From the NCBI GenBank assembly GCA_963776655.1, contig CAVZNL010000004.1, forward strand, positions 490,382 to 554,381: a stretch of DNA of 64,000 nt. Direction: 5' to 3'. The translations under genes and the position numbers were made by a program. This document shows, in pieces, positions 14,889-58,702 of the stretch (positions are counted from its first letter, which is position 1; the number at the start of each line of letters is the position of its first letter). The stretch is from an uncultured Alphaproteobacteria bacterium. Lineage in GTDB: Bacteria; Pseudomonadota; Alphaproteobacteria; Rhizobiales; Methyloligellaceae. Under the pieces are notes generated by a model. It saw nothing but the letters and a program-made list of their open reading frames with translations. It was not told where the DNA came from and made no database searches.

Positions 14889-15428
14889 TTACGCTTTCGC
14901 GTGGCGCGCGCCGTGCCCTGCGCCCGCCAGCATGCCGGCGAGCTTTTCGGACACATAGCCAAACACCGCGCCGATGATCATCGAAAGAATAACGACGACA
15001 ACGGGGTTCTCCAGAGAAGCCGCGGTCAGGCTTCCGGCCGCATCCTTCATCAGGGTATAGGCGACGACGGAGGCAAAGCCATAGACCTGCGCCGGGATGG
15101 TGGCGAACATCGGAACGTTGGCAAGCAGCACCATGGCGGCGACGCCGATGCCGACGCAGATCGCGGCCCATATCGGGAGCCCCATTGTGTCGGCCATGCC
15201 GGTCATGGTGGCGACGATCAGCGTAATGCCGGCAATGATCGCACCGGCGGCATTGTTCAGGACCGCCGTTTGCAGGCCCTGTTCCTTGCCACCGCAATGG
15301 AAGAAGCAACCCCAGGCGATGAAGGCGGCCCAAATCGCCAGCACGCCACCGAGCGGCCCCAGGAAGAGCCACGTGGCAATTGCGCCAAGTACGCCAACGC
15401 TGACTGCAAGAGCTGTATTCGCTGACAT
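14889..15428 (-). CDS. DUF1097 membrane protein
   Basis: ALAVSVGVLGAIATW, IWAAFIAWGCFFHCGG, GAVFGYVSEKL. Confidence 0.85.
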   Translation of the reverse strand: MSANTALAVSVGVLGAIATWLFLGPLGGVLAIWAAFIAWGCFFHCGGKEQGLQTAVLNNAAGAIIAGITLIVATMTGMADTMGLPIWAAICVGIGVAAMVLLANVPMFATIPAQVYGFASVVAYTLMKDAAGSLTAASLENPVVVVILSMIIGAVFGYVSEKLAGMLAGAGHGARHAKA

Positions 15429-17137: not shown

Positions 17138-17983
17138 TTAGCCGCGCCAACGGGCCAGACGCCAAAACCGGTAGAGCGGGTTGATGTCTATGATCTCCCG
17201 CAAAGGATCGCCCCCTCTCCGATCCAACGCTTCGAGCGCGGCGAGATAAGGCCCAACCAGAGAGAGCGGCAGAAAGGCCAAGTTTGCGGAGCGGTCGAGC
17301 CCGGTCGCCTGACGGCGCGCGTCTTCACATGAGGCACGCGCCTTATCTCGCAGCTCGGCGAGCAGAGCGCGAAGGCCCTGGCTTGCCGATCCTGCCAGAA
17401 CGGCTTCGGGTGAGGTGCCACGGGACCGGAGCAGATCGGCCGGGAGATAGACGCGGCCTCCCGCCGCATGGAACGGCAAGGCCCGCATCAGGCCGGTCAG
17501 GCCGTAAGCGAGACCCCCTTGGGCAGAAGCGCGGTCGAAGTCAGGCGCCTTCGCGCCGAGACACTCTGCCGCCAGGGCAAACATGGCGCCGGCCGTCTCC
17601 TTCACATAGGTTTCGAGCGCGCTCCAGCCGGGCATGATCCTGGTCGCGACGTCGAATTGGCGGGCATCGATCAGCATGGCGATGCGCTCGGCTGACAAAG
17701 CGTGACGCCGCATCGTCTCGCCGAAAGCGTCCGCCACGGGATGGCCGACGGGTTCCCCCTCGCGCGCACGCGCGAGCGCCTCGCGCCACCATTGCAGGCG
17801 GATGGCGCCAAGCTCCGGCTCCTTCACCTGCTCGGCGATGCGCGCGAGCTCGACATTGAGCGCGCAAAGAGCGAGGAGATCGGGCCGCACCGCGCGCGGC
17901 GCGAACGAGGCGGCGAGCGCCCGGTCGGGATCGCCCGACCGCGCGATGCGTCTTACCGTGTCGCCCGGCTCGGCCTCATGCAA
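17138..17983 (-). CDS. Phytoene/squalene synthase family protein (NDUFAF6-like)
   Basis: LCALNVELARI, GAIRLQWWRE, GRVYLPAD; usual neighbour of secF. Confidence 0.88.
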   Translation of the reverse strand: MHEAEPGDTVRRIARSGDPDRALAASFAPRAVRPDLLALCALNVELARIAEQVKEPELGAIRLQWWREALARAREGEPVGHPVADAFGETMRRHALSAERIAMLIDARQFDVATRIMPGWSALETYVKETAGAMFALAAECLGAKAPDFDRASAQGGLAYGLTGLMRALPFHAAGGRVYLPADLLRSRGTSPEAVLAGSASQGLRALLAELRDKARASCEDARRQATGLDRSANLAFLPLSLVGPYLAALEALDRRGGDPLREIIDINPLYRFWRLARWRG

Positions 17984-41902: not shown

Positions 41903-42675
41903 ACCCGATGGCGGAGCCTCATCTTCCCGATCCGAGGCGCGCGAAGGGTCCCTATCGGCCCTTCGCCTCCGACCCCGCCTGGAACGAGGCGTGGTGGTGG
42001 CTCGGCCTGCCCGTCCTCGTTGCGGCGTTCACGGTCGGGACGTATCAGGTCGCGCCGGATTGGTACCAGCGCTACGTCCGTCCGGAAGGGTATGGCATTC
42101 TTGAAATTTCGCACTTCCTCATCCCGCTGTTCGGTCTCTTGATCGCGGGCGGCCTGCTGTTTCTGCCCTTCGTCAGGGCGCGGCCCCTCGTCTTCAGCGT
42201 GGCGCTGCTCGGCGCGTTGAGCTGCATCTACATCGCCGGCGAAGAGATGAGCTGGGGCCAGCATATCTTTCAGTGGAACACGCCCGAGTACTGGGCGATG
42301 GTCAATCGGCAGCAAGAGACCAATCTGCACAACACCTATGCCATCTTCGAAAAGATCCCGCGCACAATCCTCGAACTCCTGATTTTTGCCGGCGGCCTGC
42401 TTGTGCCGCTCGCCGCCGTTTTTTACCCCTGGCTCCGCAGCGCACGCTTGTCGCTGTTCTTGCCTGCGGCGGCGCTGGTGCCGACGGCGCTCGGCGCCAC
42501 AATCTTCAAGGTGATCGACCGGCTCCAGCAAGGCAACTACGTGCCGACCGTCGTCTACCGGCCGAGCGAGACCATCGAGACCTATCTCTATTTCTTTATC
42601 TTCGCCTATCTCCTGATCTTCGCGCGCCGCATCAAAGAGCTCCAAACTGGCGGAAGGCGCGCTGCCGAGGTGAGA

Positions 42676-42702
<27 letters not shown>
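41899..42702 (+). CDS. Uncharacterised multi-pass membrane protein, paralog 2
   Basis: [19 protein letters not shown]; ATGA overlap with paralog 1. Confidence 0.82.
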
Positions 42703-45408
<2,706 letters not shown>

Positions 45409-49083: not shown

Positions 49084-49157
49084 TCGTCATGCCGTTACCC
49101 CTCAACAAACTGAAGCGCTAGTGGAATGGATTGCCGGGTCAAGCCCGGCAATGACGG
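49084..49157. repeat. RPE-like repeat, uninterrupted homolog of 14593-14693
   Basis: TGGATTGCCGGGTCAAGCCCGGCAATGACGG. Confidence 0.8.
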
Positions 49158-49304: not shown

Positions 49305-49378
49305 GGCCACGTGGCGGAGTGGTTACGCAGCGGACTGCAAATCCGTGCACACCGGTTCGATTCCGGTCGTGGCCTCCA
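49305..49378 (+). tRNA. tRNA-Cys (GCA)
   Basis: Acceptor stem GGCCACG/CGTGGCC, anticodon loop CTGCAAA, GTTCGA T-loop, encoded CCA. Confidence 0.97.
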
Positions 49379-49611
49379 ATACTTACCTCGCATCGAGAGC
49401 TCAATTTTGCAGTCCGCTTTGCAGAATCCGTTCATCCTCTGTGCTTCTCCAGCTTGAAGATCGCCGCGCCAGCGAGCGCATCGGTGCGCGCGCAATAGCG
49501 CTCGATGGGCTTCTATTGGCTGTACTGATGCGTCGGCGTGGTGCGCTGGCGACGTTTGACGAGTTAACGACATAAGATCCTAGCAAACTGCTTCCTTTAG
49601 CCCGCGCACCA

Positions 49612-49685
49612 ATTTCCGCTTCACCTCACTTAGCGGAGATTTTTGGCTTCCGCGTCGACGTCCGCTAAGTGCCATTAGCCGACAA
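49612..49685. repeat. Pair of palindromic GTCCGCT..AGCGGAC sites
   Basis: ATTTCCGCTTC-ACCTCAC-TTAGCGGAGAT, 17-bp spacer, ACGTCCGCTAA-GTGCCA-TTAGCCGACAA. Confidence 0.8.
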
Positions 49686-49713
49686 GAGCCAAGGATCGCG
49701 CCCCCAAACGCCT

Positions 49714-49977
49714 TCAACGATGCGGACAGCCAGGCCAACAACAGGGTCTCCGCTTTCCGTCTTTGAGGCTGGAACACCCCCATTCGATCCGGCGAGTTCT
49801 TGTTTCTGGTTTCTTGGCCAACTCGATCCAGCAGATCCATTCATTTCGCGCGAGCGGCGTAATGTCCTCCCACGTCTCCAACGCTTCGGCGTCGGAGGTC
49901 AGTGCCTTTTTCAGGTCCGCGGGCAGATCGTGGACCACACCGCCTGAGATCTCTTTTACGCTCAAAGTTTCGCTCAC
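49714..49977 (-). CDS. YdeI/OmpD-associated family protein
   Basis: LPADLKKAL...ITPLARNEWICWI..AKKPETRTRRI...RRPCCWPGC. Confidence 0.88.
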   Translation of the reverse strand: MSETLSVKEISGGVVHDLPADLKKALTSDAEALETWEDITPLARNEWICWIELAKKPETRTRRIEWGCSSLKDGKRRPCCWPGCPHR

Positions 49978-50125
49978 AAGTGTATCGCCCGTTGCATTTT
50001 AGCGAGCCCCGGCGTACTGGCCTCAGTTAAACATTCAGGCTTTTAGCCTGAATTATGCTCGGCAATACGGGTATTTCGGGATTTGTTTGGTCTCCGTGAC
50101 ACCTGGAAGTTCTCGTGGTGGAACG

Positions 50126-50599
50126 TCAGCCACGCCGCGCCGCCTTGATCGCGGCGATGTCGATCTTCTTCATGCCCATCATCGCATCAAACGCGCGCTT
50201 TGCTTCATCGCCGCCGGCCGCCAGCGCCTCGGTCAGCACGCGCGGCGTTATTTGCCAGGAGACGCCCCACTTGTCTTTGCACCAGCCGCACTGGCTCTCC
50301 TGCCCGCCATTGCCGACGATGGCGTTCCAGTAGCGGTCGGTCTCTTGCTGATCATCGGTGGCGATCTGGAACGAGAAGGCTTCGTTATGCTTGAACGCGG
50401 GACCGCCGTTGAGGCCGATACAGGGGACGCCGGCGACTGTGAATTCGACCGTCAGCACGTCTCCCTCCTTGCCGGCTGGGTAGTCACTGGGGGCACGGTG
50501 CACGGCACCCACCGCGCTGCCGGGAAAGGCCTCGGCGTAAAAGCGGGCAGCAGCCTCGGCCTCCTTGTCGTACCACAGGCAAATCGTGTTCTTGGCCAT
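50126..50599 (-). CDS. VOC/PhnB-like (3-demethylubiquinone-9 3-methyltransferase family) protein
   Basis: CLWYDKEAEAAARFY, LNGGPAF, CGWCKDKWGVSWQI. Confidence 0.92.
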   Translation of the reverse strand: MAKNTICLWYDKEAEAAARFYAEAFPGSAVGAVHRAPSDYPAGKEGDVLTVEFTVAGVPCIGLNGGPAFKHNEAFSFQIATDDQQETDRYWNAIVGNGGQESQCGWCKDKWGVSWQITPRVLTEALAAGGDEAKRAFDAMMGMKKIDIAAIKAARRG

Positions 50600-50807
50600 T
50601 GCTTATCCTTTCGCTTCCTTTCGCATCATTTGCCGCACCCCGACGTGTAGTCGAGCTTGGGTTGGAATCGTTGACTGCGGGCTTACCGCATAAACATCCC
50701 GTGCGATTTGGCAGTTCCGCCCAGGCACGAGGAGTTGAAGATCCTTCGCGTGCGCCTCGATTGCCGTGAGCTTGCCTGAAGGAGCCCCATAGTGAAGGGC
50801 ACGCGTT

Positions 50808-50925
50808 GAGTCCGCTTTGGGTCATTAGCGGACACTCTGGCGCGGACTGGATGTCCGCTCCACCCTCCAATAGCGGACATGCTCAGAGTCAGCATCGATG
50901 TCTGCTAAGTGCCATTAGCGGACAT
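50808..50925. repeat. Triplet of palindromic GTCCGCT..AGCGGAC sites
   Basis: GAGTCCGCTTT-GGGTCA-TTAGCGGACAC; ATGTCCGCTCC-ACCCTCCA-ATAGCGGACAT; ATGTCTGCTAA-GTGCCA-TTAGCGGACAT. Confidence 0.85.
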
Positions 50926-50941
50926 GTGGCCGGCTTTCCCC

Positions 50942-51270
50942 TCAGTCCTCAGCGGCTGAGGGTTCCGTCGTAACGGGCCCTAAATACTTCACGTTGATCG
51001 TATCGATTTTACCGTTGAACCTGAATGGCGCCCGATCGAAATAAGCTAGCGAGACTGGCGAATAGCTGTCCATGCCGACATCAAAGGTGTCGTTTGCCGT
51101 GAATAGGACCGGCGCGTTACACGGCACGCGCCCCTTGGCGACCTCATCTCCATTGATGCGAATTGTAACGTCCATGGGCCGACTGTGACCCTTACCGGAA
51201 AGACGCGACTCAACTCAATCTTGACCCTGCCGATAGGCAAGGGCTTCTCAGTGGAAATTCGAGTGCGCGT
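50942..51270 (-). pseudogene. C-terminal fragment of an arylsulfatase-like protein
   Basis: VAKGRVP...FTANDTFDVGMDSYSPVSLAYFDRAPFRFNGKI resembles long-sulfatase C-termini; no 5' part or catalytic motif present. Confidence 0.7.
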
Positions 51271-51452
51271 AGAGCACCCCGCTTGCAGGTTAGCCTAGCC
51301 AAAGTCGGTGCAAGCGATCACAGAGAGCGAAGTTTGGAGAATGGTGGGGCGCACTAGGCGCAAATTCTCCGTTCGGCAATTCGGCGGTCCGGTTAGGTGC
51401 GGTCGAGATCACAGCGCATCATCGAGGATTGGTACACGTGGTACATTCGCTG

Positions 51453-51480
51453 ATGTCTGCTAAGTGCCATACCGGACATT
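51453..51480. repeat. Single GTGCCA-core palindromic site
   Basis: ATGTCTGCTAA-GTGCCA-TACCGGACATT. Confidence 0.75.
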
Positions 51481-51530
51481 TAGGTGCGAGAGAATGGAAA
51501 CTTATTCGCAAGGAGACGCGGACGCTTCCC

Positions 51531-52016
51531 TTAACATCCCGCCGTTCTTCGCTCGCAATTCACCGTCCTGATCCAGGCGATGATTTTCCAGATCTCATCT
51601 TCGCTCTTGATGATCTCACCATAGGGGGGCATCGGCCCGACCACGTGCTCGGAGCCCTTTCGCACGAAGCCCTGCTTCTCGAAAGCGCCTCCCGGGCTGA
51701 GACTGCCTGTGCCGAGCGTGATCAGCCGGAACAGAGTATCGTCGTCATCGCCATAGATCCAAACCTCGTTGGTGAGCGGTGCGGCCATGCCCCCACCTCC
51801 ACCGCCTCCGTGACAACCGCCGCAGTCGAGCGAGCGGTAAATCTTGCGGCCTTGCTCGGCGACAGTCGAGACATCCGTATAAGGGCTCTTAAGCTGCCCC
51901 TTCGGCGCGCTCGCCACGCGATCCGGGAGCGTCATGATCTCGGCCGACGCCACAGGCCAACCGAAAAGGGTCGCCGCGATGAAGCCCATCACAATCCTGT
52001 CGAGCATTCCGCACAT
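51531..52016 (-). CDS. c-type cytochrome, XoxG/cytochrome cL-like (start uncertain)
   Basis: Signal peptide; CGGCHGGGGGGGM, LTNEVWIYGDDDDTLFRL, VVGPMPP, WKIIAWIR. Confidence 0.85.
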   Translation of the reverse strand: MCGMLDRIVMGFIAATLFGWPVASAEIMTLPDRVASAPKGQLKSPYTDVSTVAEQGRKIYRSLDCGGCHGGGGGGGMAAPLTNEVWIYGDDDDTLFRLITLGTGSLSPGGAFEKQGFVRKGSEHVVGPMPPYGEIIKSEDEIWKIIAWIRTVNCERRTAGC

Positions 52017-57634: not shown

Positions 57635-58125
57635 GGTGACCTCCGTAGGTGTTAGCACCCCCATCCGGCCCACACGAAGCTCTAGACAGTTTAGCTGACC
57701 ATTTTGGGCATTTTGGGATCGCGGGTCGATCCACCTTGACCGGGGCTTCTTCTTTGCGTCATGCCGACGAATGAGCGCAGAACACCAAACCCGTGAAAGT
57801 GCAAACGGTATGGTCTAGAGGTTATCGGGCTTTAGGCGCTCGCTTCGGCCGGCGCGTTTGCTCTCGCAAAAGATCAGGCCCCGCGCGGGCCTGAGCGCGG
57901 GGCCCCCATTTGCGAGGATAATTGTGTTCTGCGGGTTCCCTCAGCCTTGCCATTCAAACTCCCCCGGTTTGAACAGCCTGCCCGCAGTCCTTTAACGTAG
58001 CAGTTCCAAGATGCTTCCGGTCGTGGCCTCCAACATCCGGTCGATATGGAGGGCAATTGGCATGAGCGCCCTCAGCCGCGGTTCCGTGCCGGAGGTATTG
58101 GAACGATAGGCGCTCGCTTCGGCGC

Positions 58126-58390: not shown

Positions 58391-58702
58391 CTACGGCCGT
58401 CGATCGCGACCGAGAGTCGTATCCTTCTTGGAAGCCAGCGCGGCGGTGTCTTCGGTGTCGGAAATCTCGTCCTCCTCGCCCTTCCTGCGGTGCCACCACA
58501 CGGTAAGCTGACGCCGCCAGCGCCGCACGATGGGGAGGTCGACCGAGAGCACGAGAAGGCCAAGCGGGATCATCCAGAACCCGAGCACCGGAAGGAAGCC
58601 CACAATTCCGCCGACGATGAGGAGGATGCCGATCCCGATGCGGATCGGCTTCGATTTCGGCAGATGCCAATGTCGGTCGAAGATGCGGATCTTAGGGGCC
58701 AT
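58391..58702 (-). CDS. PGPGW-like small membrane protein
   Basis: IGIGILLIVGGIVGFLPVLGFWMIPLGLLVLSVD..VRRWRR. Confidence 0.85.
   Translation of the reverse strand: MAPKIRIFDRHWHLPKSKPIRIGIGILLIVGGIVGFLPVLGFWMIPLGLLVLSVDLPIVRRWRRQLTVWWHRRKGEEDEISDTEDTAALASKKDTTLGRDRRP

Follow-up and report, generated by a model that had tools for sequence, protein, structure and literature searches.

The 64,000-nucleotide stretch analysed here (the window: contig CAVZNL010000004.1, positions 490,382 to 554,381, of an uncultured alphaproteobacterium of the family Methyloligellaceae) carries a short array of six related palindromic sites interspersed with small minus-strand genes (Table 1). A preliminary description of the sequence had proposed that these sites belong to a gene-cassette recombination system. 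All six palindromes lie at the positions and have the cores that it gave, none being misplaced, and a scan of the window detected no further sites of the family. Each of the two sites with a C-rich core (49612 and 50851) stands 17 bp ahead of a GTGCCA site, and the re-measured distances from stop codon to site are 28, 16 and 50 bp, both as described. The gene labels also stand: YdeI/OmdA (PF13376), PF06983, cytochrome c and the C-terminal fragment of an arylsulfatase. The 11-bp arms hold in part, the outer nine positions being conserved and the inner two variable. From left to right, the array begins with a truncated linker, continues with one module and one linker that are both complete, and ends with a decayed module and an A site that has no partner. 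Its B-to-M spacer is 15 bp long, and metagenome contigs with a similar junction have two extra bases. A valyl-tRNA-synthetase-like gene at window positions 42632-45408 is broken across frames, which suggests insertion or deletion errors in the assembly; single-base oddities in the sites therefore need caution. The exact three-site pattern gave no match in the window, and the junction gave none by BLASTN against plasmid sequences.

Table 1. Sites, genes and island boundaries in the window, and the candidate recombinase gene elsewhere in the source genome (G000). A, B and M denote the three site types; aa, amino acids; att, attachment site; ORF, open reading frame.
Feature	Position	Strand	Remarks
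tRNA-Cys, integration site of the 8.7-kb island that carries the array	49305..49378	+	
Left att core of island (tRNA 3' end)	49360..49378	+	19-bp direct repeat with 58014-58032
Remnant (final 24 codons) of the island integrase, distinct from the candidate cassette enzyme	49432..49506	-	Near-identical to C-terminus of a 363-aa ORF by tRNA-Cys in L019
M site, 7-bp core, part of truncated linker; no B site detected 17 bp leftward	49612..49640	-	
A site, core TGGCAC on minus strand at 49669-49674; one end of ydeI+VOC module	49658..49685	-	G037:C38 similarity starts inside site
Cargo module, ydeI + VOC-type gene, 1156 bp core to core	49669..50824		Copy at unrelated locus in L224; decayed copy in L225
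YdeI/OmpD-associated family gene, 87 aa	49714..49977	-	PF13376, E 1e-19
VOC-type (3-dmu-9_3-mt) gene, 157 aa	50126..50599	-	PF06983, E 1e-49
B site, core TGACCC on minus strand at 50819-50824; other end of module	50808..50835	-	L224 diverges past site
M site, 8-bp core, centre of full A-M-B linker; likely accessory binding site (predicted)	50851..50880	-	
A site closing the A-M-B linker	50898..50925	-	
Arylsulfatase gene, C-terminal fragment; decayed cargo between two A sites	50942..51175	-	Matches C-terminus of ~790-aa arylsulfatases
A site, degenerate right arm; no partner site detected	51453..51480	-	
Cytochrome c gene; stop 50 bp from the A site at 51453; closing B site not found in window	51531..52016	-	
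Right att core of island	58014..58032	+	One mismatch to 49360-49378
Candidate recombinase gene, 210 aa	G000:C3:283104-283736 (L005:1363-1995)		Between B site and A site, 795 bp core to core

The sites belong to a large family. In the 2.77-Mb source genome, the arm weight matrix found 114 sites, compared with 3 and 4 in two shuffled genomes at the same threshold; at the strictest threshold the counts were 103, 0 and 0. Cores of 6 bp occur in 78 of the 114 sites and cores of 7 bp in another 29; 74 of the 114 cores match either TGGCAC (A) or TGACCC (B) with at most one mismatch. M sites have the same arms as A and B sites, around a variable, G-rich core of 7 bp. Genome-wide, 88% of the sites lie in DNA with a guanine-plus-cytosine (GC) content below 61%, where only 12.5% of random positions fall, and these low-GC arrays reach up to 50 kb. 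The largest cluster comprises 41 sites in 48 kb, with 27 of its 28 A/B sites on one strand. Kilobase-sized blocks recur between contigs of this genome at 91-99% identity (C1:1-55000, C6:497000-553000, C2:491207-502593 and C7); they are either recent module copies or co-binned strains.

The arrays follow a simple grammar. Junctions have the form A-17 bp-M-17 bp-B or A-17 bp-B, 17-bp spacers predominating, and the resulting A-to-B linkers are short (45 bp without M or about 90 bp with it), while the B-to-A stretches that hold the cargo are long. In 90 array stretches, the short gaps number 153, of which 140 lead from A to B; the 326 long gaps divide into 164 B-A, 63 A-A, 37 B-B, 31 A-B and 31 strand changes, and only 33 of 479 neighbouring site pairs are on opposite strands. 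Two generalizations drawn from the window do not extend to the genome. A fixed orientation of sites relative to genes is not supported: by our crude, home-made gene calls, genes next to A sites run 14 with and 10 against the site, and those next to B sites 7 with and 15 against. The cargo, taken to be stress and detoxification genes, is in fact broader.

Compared all against all, the arrays gave 192 informative alignment ends. In 15 of these (14 distinct) the end falls inside a site on both sides of the comparison, whereas a random position does so 2.4% of the time, an excess with P = 2.5e-4 (14/191 after removal of the duplicate). All 15 pair like with like: 12 join A to A, 3 join B to B and none is mixed. 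Counted by hand in the 11 distinct A pairs, the two variable arm bases adjacent to the core match in 21 of 22 cases on the shared side and in 10 of 22 on the opposite one (P = 6e-4), indicating that the crossover lies within the 6-bp core. The M sites contain none of the 14 distinct breakpoints (chance about 0.025), in agreement with the suggestion that the middle palindrome is not itself a crossover point. The like-with-like breaks at cores support the proposal of modular exchange at sites of tyrosine-recombinase type, and we regard it as very probable that these are recombination sites.

Individual modules can be followed to other loci. The ydeI+VOC block of the window recurs in L224, bounded by the A and B cores and joined to different linkers, so that the same cassette is present at another locus with its breaks at the cores, as the preliminary description had anticipated. 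In the copy carried by genome G037, similarity begins within the A site and the linker differs past the B site; this copy is flanked by hydrolase-like and amidohydrolase-like ORFs (labels read off the sequence). A soil-metagenome contig (run X1) matches window positions 50583-50824 with one difference and departs at the last base of the B core. Likewise, an 812-bp B-to-A block is common to L097 and L117 with different linkers, and a given cargo end continues past an A core into linker-position sequence in L293 and into the 3' end of the recombinase gene in L298. A contig of run X12 that joins 50834 to 49660 was considered as the junction of an excised circle and dismissed: any short B-A linker would map in the same way, and the contig is no evidence for a circle.

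Which enzyme might act on these sites? As the preliminary description stated, there is no recombinase in the window: its contig has no PF00589 match, and only the 24-codon end of an integrase is left. The enzyme had been supposed to act from outside the window, and a candidate gene is indeed present on another contig. Eight PF00589 matches were found in the source genome; the only one within 100 bp of a site is the 210-aa candidate listed in Table 1, the others being at least 1349 bp away. The candidate has the tyrosine recombinase catalytic set R-K-H-R-H-Y and the catalytic-domain fold; among 24 sequences, R62, K90, R161, H184 and Y193 do not vary, and H158 is almost constant. Its structure model consists of the catalytic domain alone (predicted local distance difference test score, pLDDT, 68) and matches the XerA and Cre folds, with 24 disordered residues preceding the first helix, which starts at residue 31. 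The N-terminal core-binding domain of canonical members is absent, as judged from the model and from the lengths of relatives: 7999 are near the candidate's length and 29 are longer, mostly mixed fusions. No NCBIfam family matched the candidate at its cut-off. Its nearest named homologue comes from Methyloceanibacter, to which the source organism, on this evidence, probably belongs; a Klebsiella homologue is 56% identical; the same A site is present in Klebsiella.

The position of the gene ties it to the sites. A B core lies upstream of the recombinase gene in 15 of 27 loci (background 8%). Downstream of the stop codon come a hairpin and an A-type half site in 19 of the 26 genus loci that could be scored (with a single offset in 15 of them) and in 14 of 29 phylum loci, compared with a background of 2%, the pattern having been loosened after the loci were viewed (strict GTGCCA gave 4 of 29). 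With a B core on one side and an A-type half site on the other, the recombinase gene occupies the linker slot, and its direction is opposite to the site order. The cores vary by lineage: TCGCTC and GTGCCA surround the enterobacterial-type homologues, and CGGCCA or GGGTCG surround some others. The 3' hairpin of the candidate gene includes a sequence resembling a right arm, and in enterobacterial-type copies the hairpin stands in for the left arm of the A site. We conclude from these sequence relationships that the 210-aa protein is the likely enzyme of the sites. At its head, the C6 array has two recombinases (338 and 361 aa), which were discarded as candidates because the nearest sites are 1.7-1.8 kb away. 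An insertion close to where the largest array starts comprises two neighbouring tyrosine recombinase genes and an excisionase-like ORF (G000:C6:498710-501026, L009). The integrase remnant in the window was also rejected as the cassette enzyme, since it belongs to the tRNA-Cys island.

Taken together, the sites are probably duplex crossover sites of the 210-residue tyrosine recombinase, at whose cores gene modules would be exchanged. By analogy with Xer and Cre chemistry, one protomer would bind each symmetric arm and strands would be exchanged across the 6-bp core, with matching cores required, so that A x A and B x B events would be allowed. A single crossover would then excise or insert a circle of linker plus cargo, and a double crossover would swap one block for another, as in recombinase-mediated cassette exchange. 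In this scheme, short linkers would be gene-less counterparts of the recombinase gene in the linker slot, and M may serve as an accessory binding site. Arrays outlive the loss of the gene and would then be served only when a mobile copy passes through.

Besides the loosened downstream pattern, several observations weigh against this reading. For the other 177 of the 192 alignment ends, at least one partner has no site at the break; most of these are taken to be ends of conserved coding sequence. One pair, C1:27675 and C3:278889, has its entire far arm in common and must have broken outside the core. No circular junction was found among assembled metagenome contigs, the material that the search for circles covered. 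Half of the long gaps (162 of 326) do not run from B to A, for some of which undetected decayed sites account, and the orientation of the cargo is mixed. Duplicates within the source genome may reflect co-binned strains (3.96% contamination). Lacking a core-binding domain, the candidate may need a partner protein.

Further points against it come from the distribution of the gene, for which we used a genus set of 100 genomes and a phylum set of 400, kin not being independent in any count (one genome, G088, adds a row to genus tallies only). The gene occurs in 26 of the 100 genus genomes, though B sites occur in 80. It is found in 13 of the 27 genus genomes with at least 14 B sites and in 13 of the 73 with fewer (P = 0.004), a cut-off that was picked post hoc; when a single site suffices, the association is absent (P = 0.58). 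A low-stringency re-search of five site-rich genomes (45-115 B sites, 91-99% complete) found no intact copy, and two of the five retain 3' remnants of the recombinase gene with the hairpin. The expected link between site abundance and a recombinase is visible in the phylum set, where 10 of 23 genomes with an A site (site-positive) and 51 of 377 without one carry the gene (odds ratio 4.9, hand counts), and vanishes in the genus set at the one-site cut-off. The gene is missing from the remaining 13 site-positive phylum genomes. A reversed control pattern matched 14 genomes in the phylum scan, so single matches at two mismatches are partly due to chance.

In a first alternative, the crossover sites are real but are served by the host XerC/XerD or another recombinase, the small recombinase gene being only a frequent passenger. 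The 11-6-11 geometry is shared with dif and pdif, site-rich genomes without an intact gene exist, and XerC- and XerD-like genes are present in the five site-rich genomes, which were searched for the family. However, both arms follow a single consensus, in contrast to the distinct XerC and XerD arms, and the genome's own dif-like site differs, scoring below zero on the arm matrix (-8.4 and -3.2). This single dif-like site, located with a dif motif, is at G000:C4 near 260043-260070 on the minus strand. Moreover, true passengers have a site close by at just 5 of 18 loci, with variable spacing. Another short recombinase does stand beside sites (L321:1483-2049 in G074; 188 aa, 30% identical to the candidate over 159 aa, with sites on both flanks); it was rejected as the enzyme for its rarity, being found in just 3 of the 100 genus genomes. 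We consider a passenger role for the small gene unlikely.

The same low probability attaches to a second alternative, in which the B-recombinase-A unit of about 800 bp is an element the size of an insertion sequence, with the linkers as non-autonomous miniature versions, and cargo moves as a by-product of their spread and not through a cassette system. The fixed size and conserved ends of this unit fit such an element, as does the grouping of linkers into families joined to unrelated flanks, and the mixed orientation of the cargo favours it. Against it, cargo blocks retain their inner arms and exchange linkers at the cores, the sites are restricted to low-GC arrays in one orientation rather than dispersed, and no empty target site was identified. 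Its enzyme and sites are those of the module-exchange mechanism preferred here.

The arms themselves speak for duplex DNA as the active form. Left and right arms pair hardly better within a site than with shuffled partners (0.756 versus 0.748 for A sites, 0.754 versus 0.749 for B sites), and changes at position 6, the most variable inner arm position, are compensated in 7 of 73 cases. The spacers of the A-M-B linker are not complementary (0.24). The absence of covariation in the arms and the non-complementary spacers fit protein-bound duplex sites and not attC or repetitive extragenic palindromic (REP) hairpins; on the same grounds, an attC-like long hairpin of the A-M-B linker was rejected. 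The sites show neither the variable loop nor the compensatory stem changes nor the T tail of REP elements and terminators. Pooled arm-linkage statistics were blurred by many related recombinase ends and set aside. That the palindromes are REP-like or terminator hairpins, amassed in accessory DNA and incidentally seeding rearrangements, is very improbable: a stable fold is predicted for the three-site junction when single-stranded (z -4.65) and gene 3' ends face the sites more often than 5' ends (29 versus 17, crude gene calls), but loop length is fixed, most cores are close to one of two sequences, the arms lack covariation, terminator prediction and an Rfam scan of the window (sole match, the tRNA) gave nothing at the sites, and breakpoints pair like cores only.

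To place the system, we compared it with known ones. The sites are neither dif nor attC, as the preliminary description held. This is a module-exchange system that works like dif modules yet lacks some of the features by which these are recognized. According to the sections of PMC13141974 and PMC6449649 available to us, pdif sites on Acinetobacter Rep_3/OrfX plasmids likewise measure 28 bp in an 11-6-11 layout, bound modules of one or several genes, rearrange between matching 6-bp spacers (compare the 15 of 15 like-core breakpoints) and delimit two alternating module types. In these sources, however, pdif arms are distinct dif-like XerC and XerD sites with variable spacers between them, adjacent sites point in opposite directions and recombination relies on host enzymes; here one symmetric consensus unlike dif surrounds two fixed, directly repeated cores, and the candidate enzyme is dedicated and mobile. 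The XerC-like/dif-like system of Tn6022 was rejected as the same thing, its recombinase being a full-length XerC homologue in the portion of PMC11014353 consulted. Integrons share the long, one-directional arrays of accessory genes, an enzyme gene opposite to the site order and orphan arrays without enzyme. Unlike integrons, the arrays described here lack a hairpin signature and have mixed cargo orientation and multi-gene blocks, and integron-integrase models gave no match, the four recombinases scanned from the source genome and Klebsiella yielding only below-cut-off matches of Xer type. Tyrosine invertases of the FimB/FimE type are short and have no core-binding domain. At about 200 aa and with a catalytic domain only, they resemble the candidate; in contrast, the only match was a weak, below-cut-off one for the Klebsiella homologue, and the sites here are direct and repeated rather than a single invertible switch. 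None of the recombinase subgroups listed in the part of PMC8138268 available to us is described as catalytic-domain-only.

A form of the sites is already known from phage P2. The fun(Z) gene of P2 is bracketed by a GTGCCA site at 15333 and a site with core TCGCTC at 17430-17457, both with the same arms; the right-hand site was missed by the scan and read by eye. As summarized in the accessible part of the review PMC8987985, repeats around fun(Z) were reported in 2004 by Nilsson, Karlsson and Haggard-Ljungquist (PMID 12949155) and enable site-specific exchange; their paper is also cited in the passages seen of PMC9122126, PMC13100340, PMC6379469 and PMC3091744. P2-like prophages hold differing cargo between these sites, as the arrays do. 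The two forms differ in that the enterobacterial partner core is GAGCGA with a 14-bp linker, whereas here it is TGACCC with 17 bp and an M site, and in that no enzyme or arrays are named in those parts of the fun(Z) literature that were available, whereas here chromosomal arrays extend up to 50 kb in Alphaproteobacteria. Of 19 matches on viral contigs, most have the enterobacterial A and GAGCGA form and several lie between tail-fibre and tail-sheath genes. On viral contigs L035-L053, the cargo between the sites varies among P2-like prophages at the tail-fibre/FI locus, and the copy in L051 stands just beyond an arsenic-resistance-like operon (label read off the sequence). The earlier statement that no named system has these repeats needs revision to this extent: the sites are partly known from P2, while the probable enzyme, the two-core grammar and the alphaproteobacterial arrays appear undescribed. 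A literature search found no account of enzyme or arrays, most subscription journals lying outside its coverage.

The range is wide and patchy. The recombinase gene was found in 62 of 401 Pseudomonadota genomes and 354 plasmid records, and an exact A site in an estimated 1900 GTDB stretches. Named carriers of the A site include Methyloceanibacter, Pseudolabrys, other Xanthobacteraceae, Pantoea, Klebsiella, Citrobacter and Pseudomonas; within the order, 12 genomes representing other families gave no match at up to one mismatch, hence the patchiness.

On balance, we lean towards the view that Proteobacteria have a third gene-cassette system, relying neither on integrons nor on XerCD, in which a minimal self-mobile recombinase in the linker slot would perform dual-site exchange, build 50-kb arrays in soil Alphaproteobacteria and be the missing enzyme of the P2 Z/fun hotspot. 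If so, it would explain how large accessory regions are assembled where integrons are scarce, as they reportedly are in Alphaproteobacteria (so Cury et al. are said to have found in 2016). It would put a candidate enzyme to the repeats that flank fun(Z) of P2, a slot for anti-phage genes. With 210 residues and two 6-bp cores that do not cross-react, the recombinase would moreover be unusually small as a tool for exchanging cassettes, and it would show how such enzymes can work when they lack a core-binding domain.

The array of the window is housed in an island at tRNA-Cys. The island has a GC content of 0.59, compared with 0.64-0.65 in its flanks. Among 20 orthologous stretches from relatives, most have tRNA-Cys within about 0.2 kb of the gene at 58391-58702 and are empty there, and none has the cargo of the window beside tRNA-Cys; six carry sites of this family within an island, located either at tRNA-Cys or at the adjacent tRNA-Asn. 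The distal part of the island, which has no sites, encodes a FecR/TPR protein, a Crp-like regulator and small secreted proteins. Upstream of tRNA-Cys, at window positions 49126-49156, lies a palindrome resembling a REP-type repeat, which we take to be unrelated to the sites.

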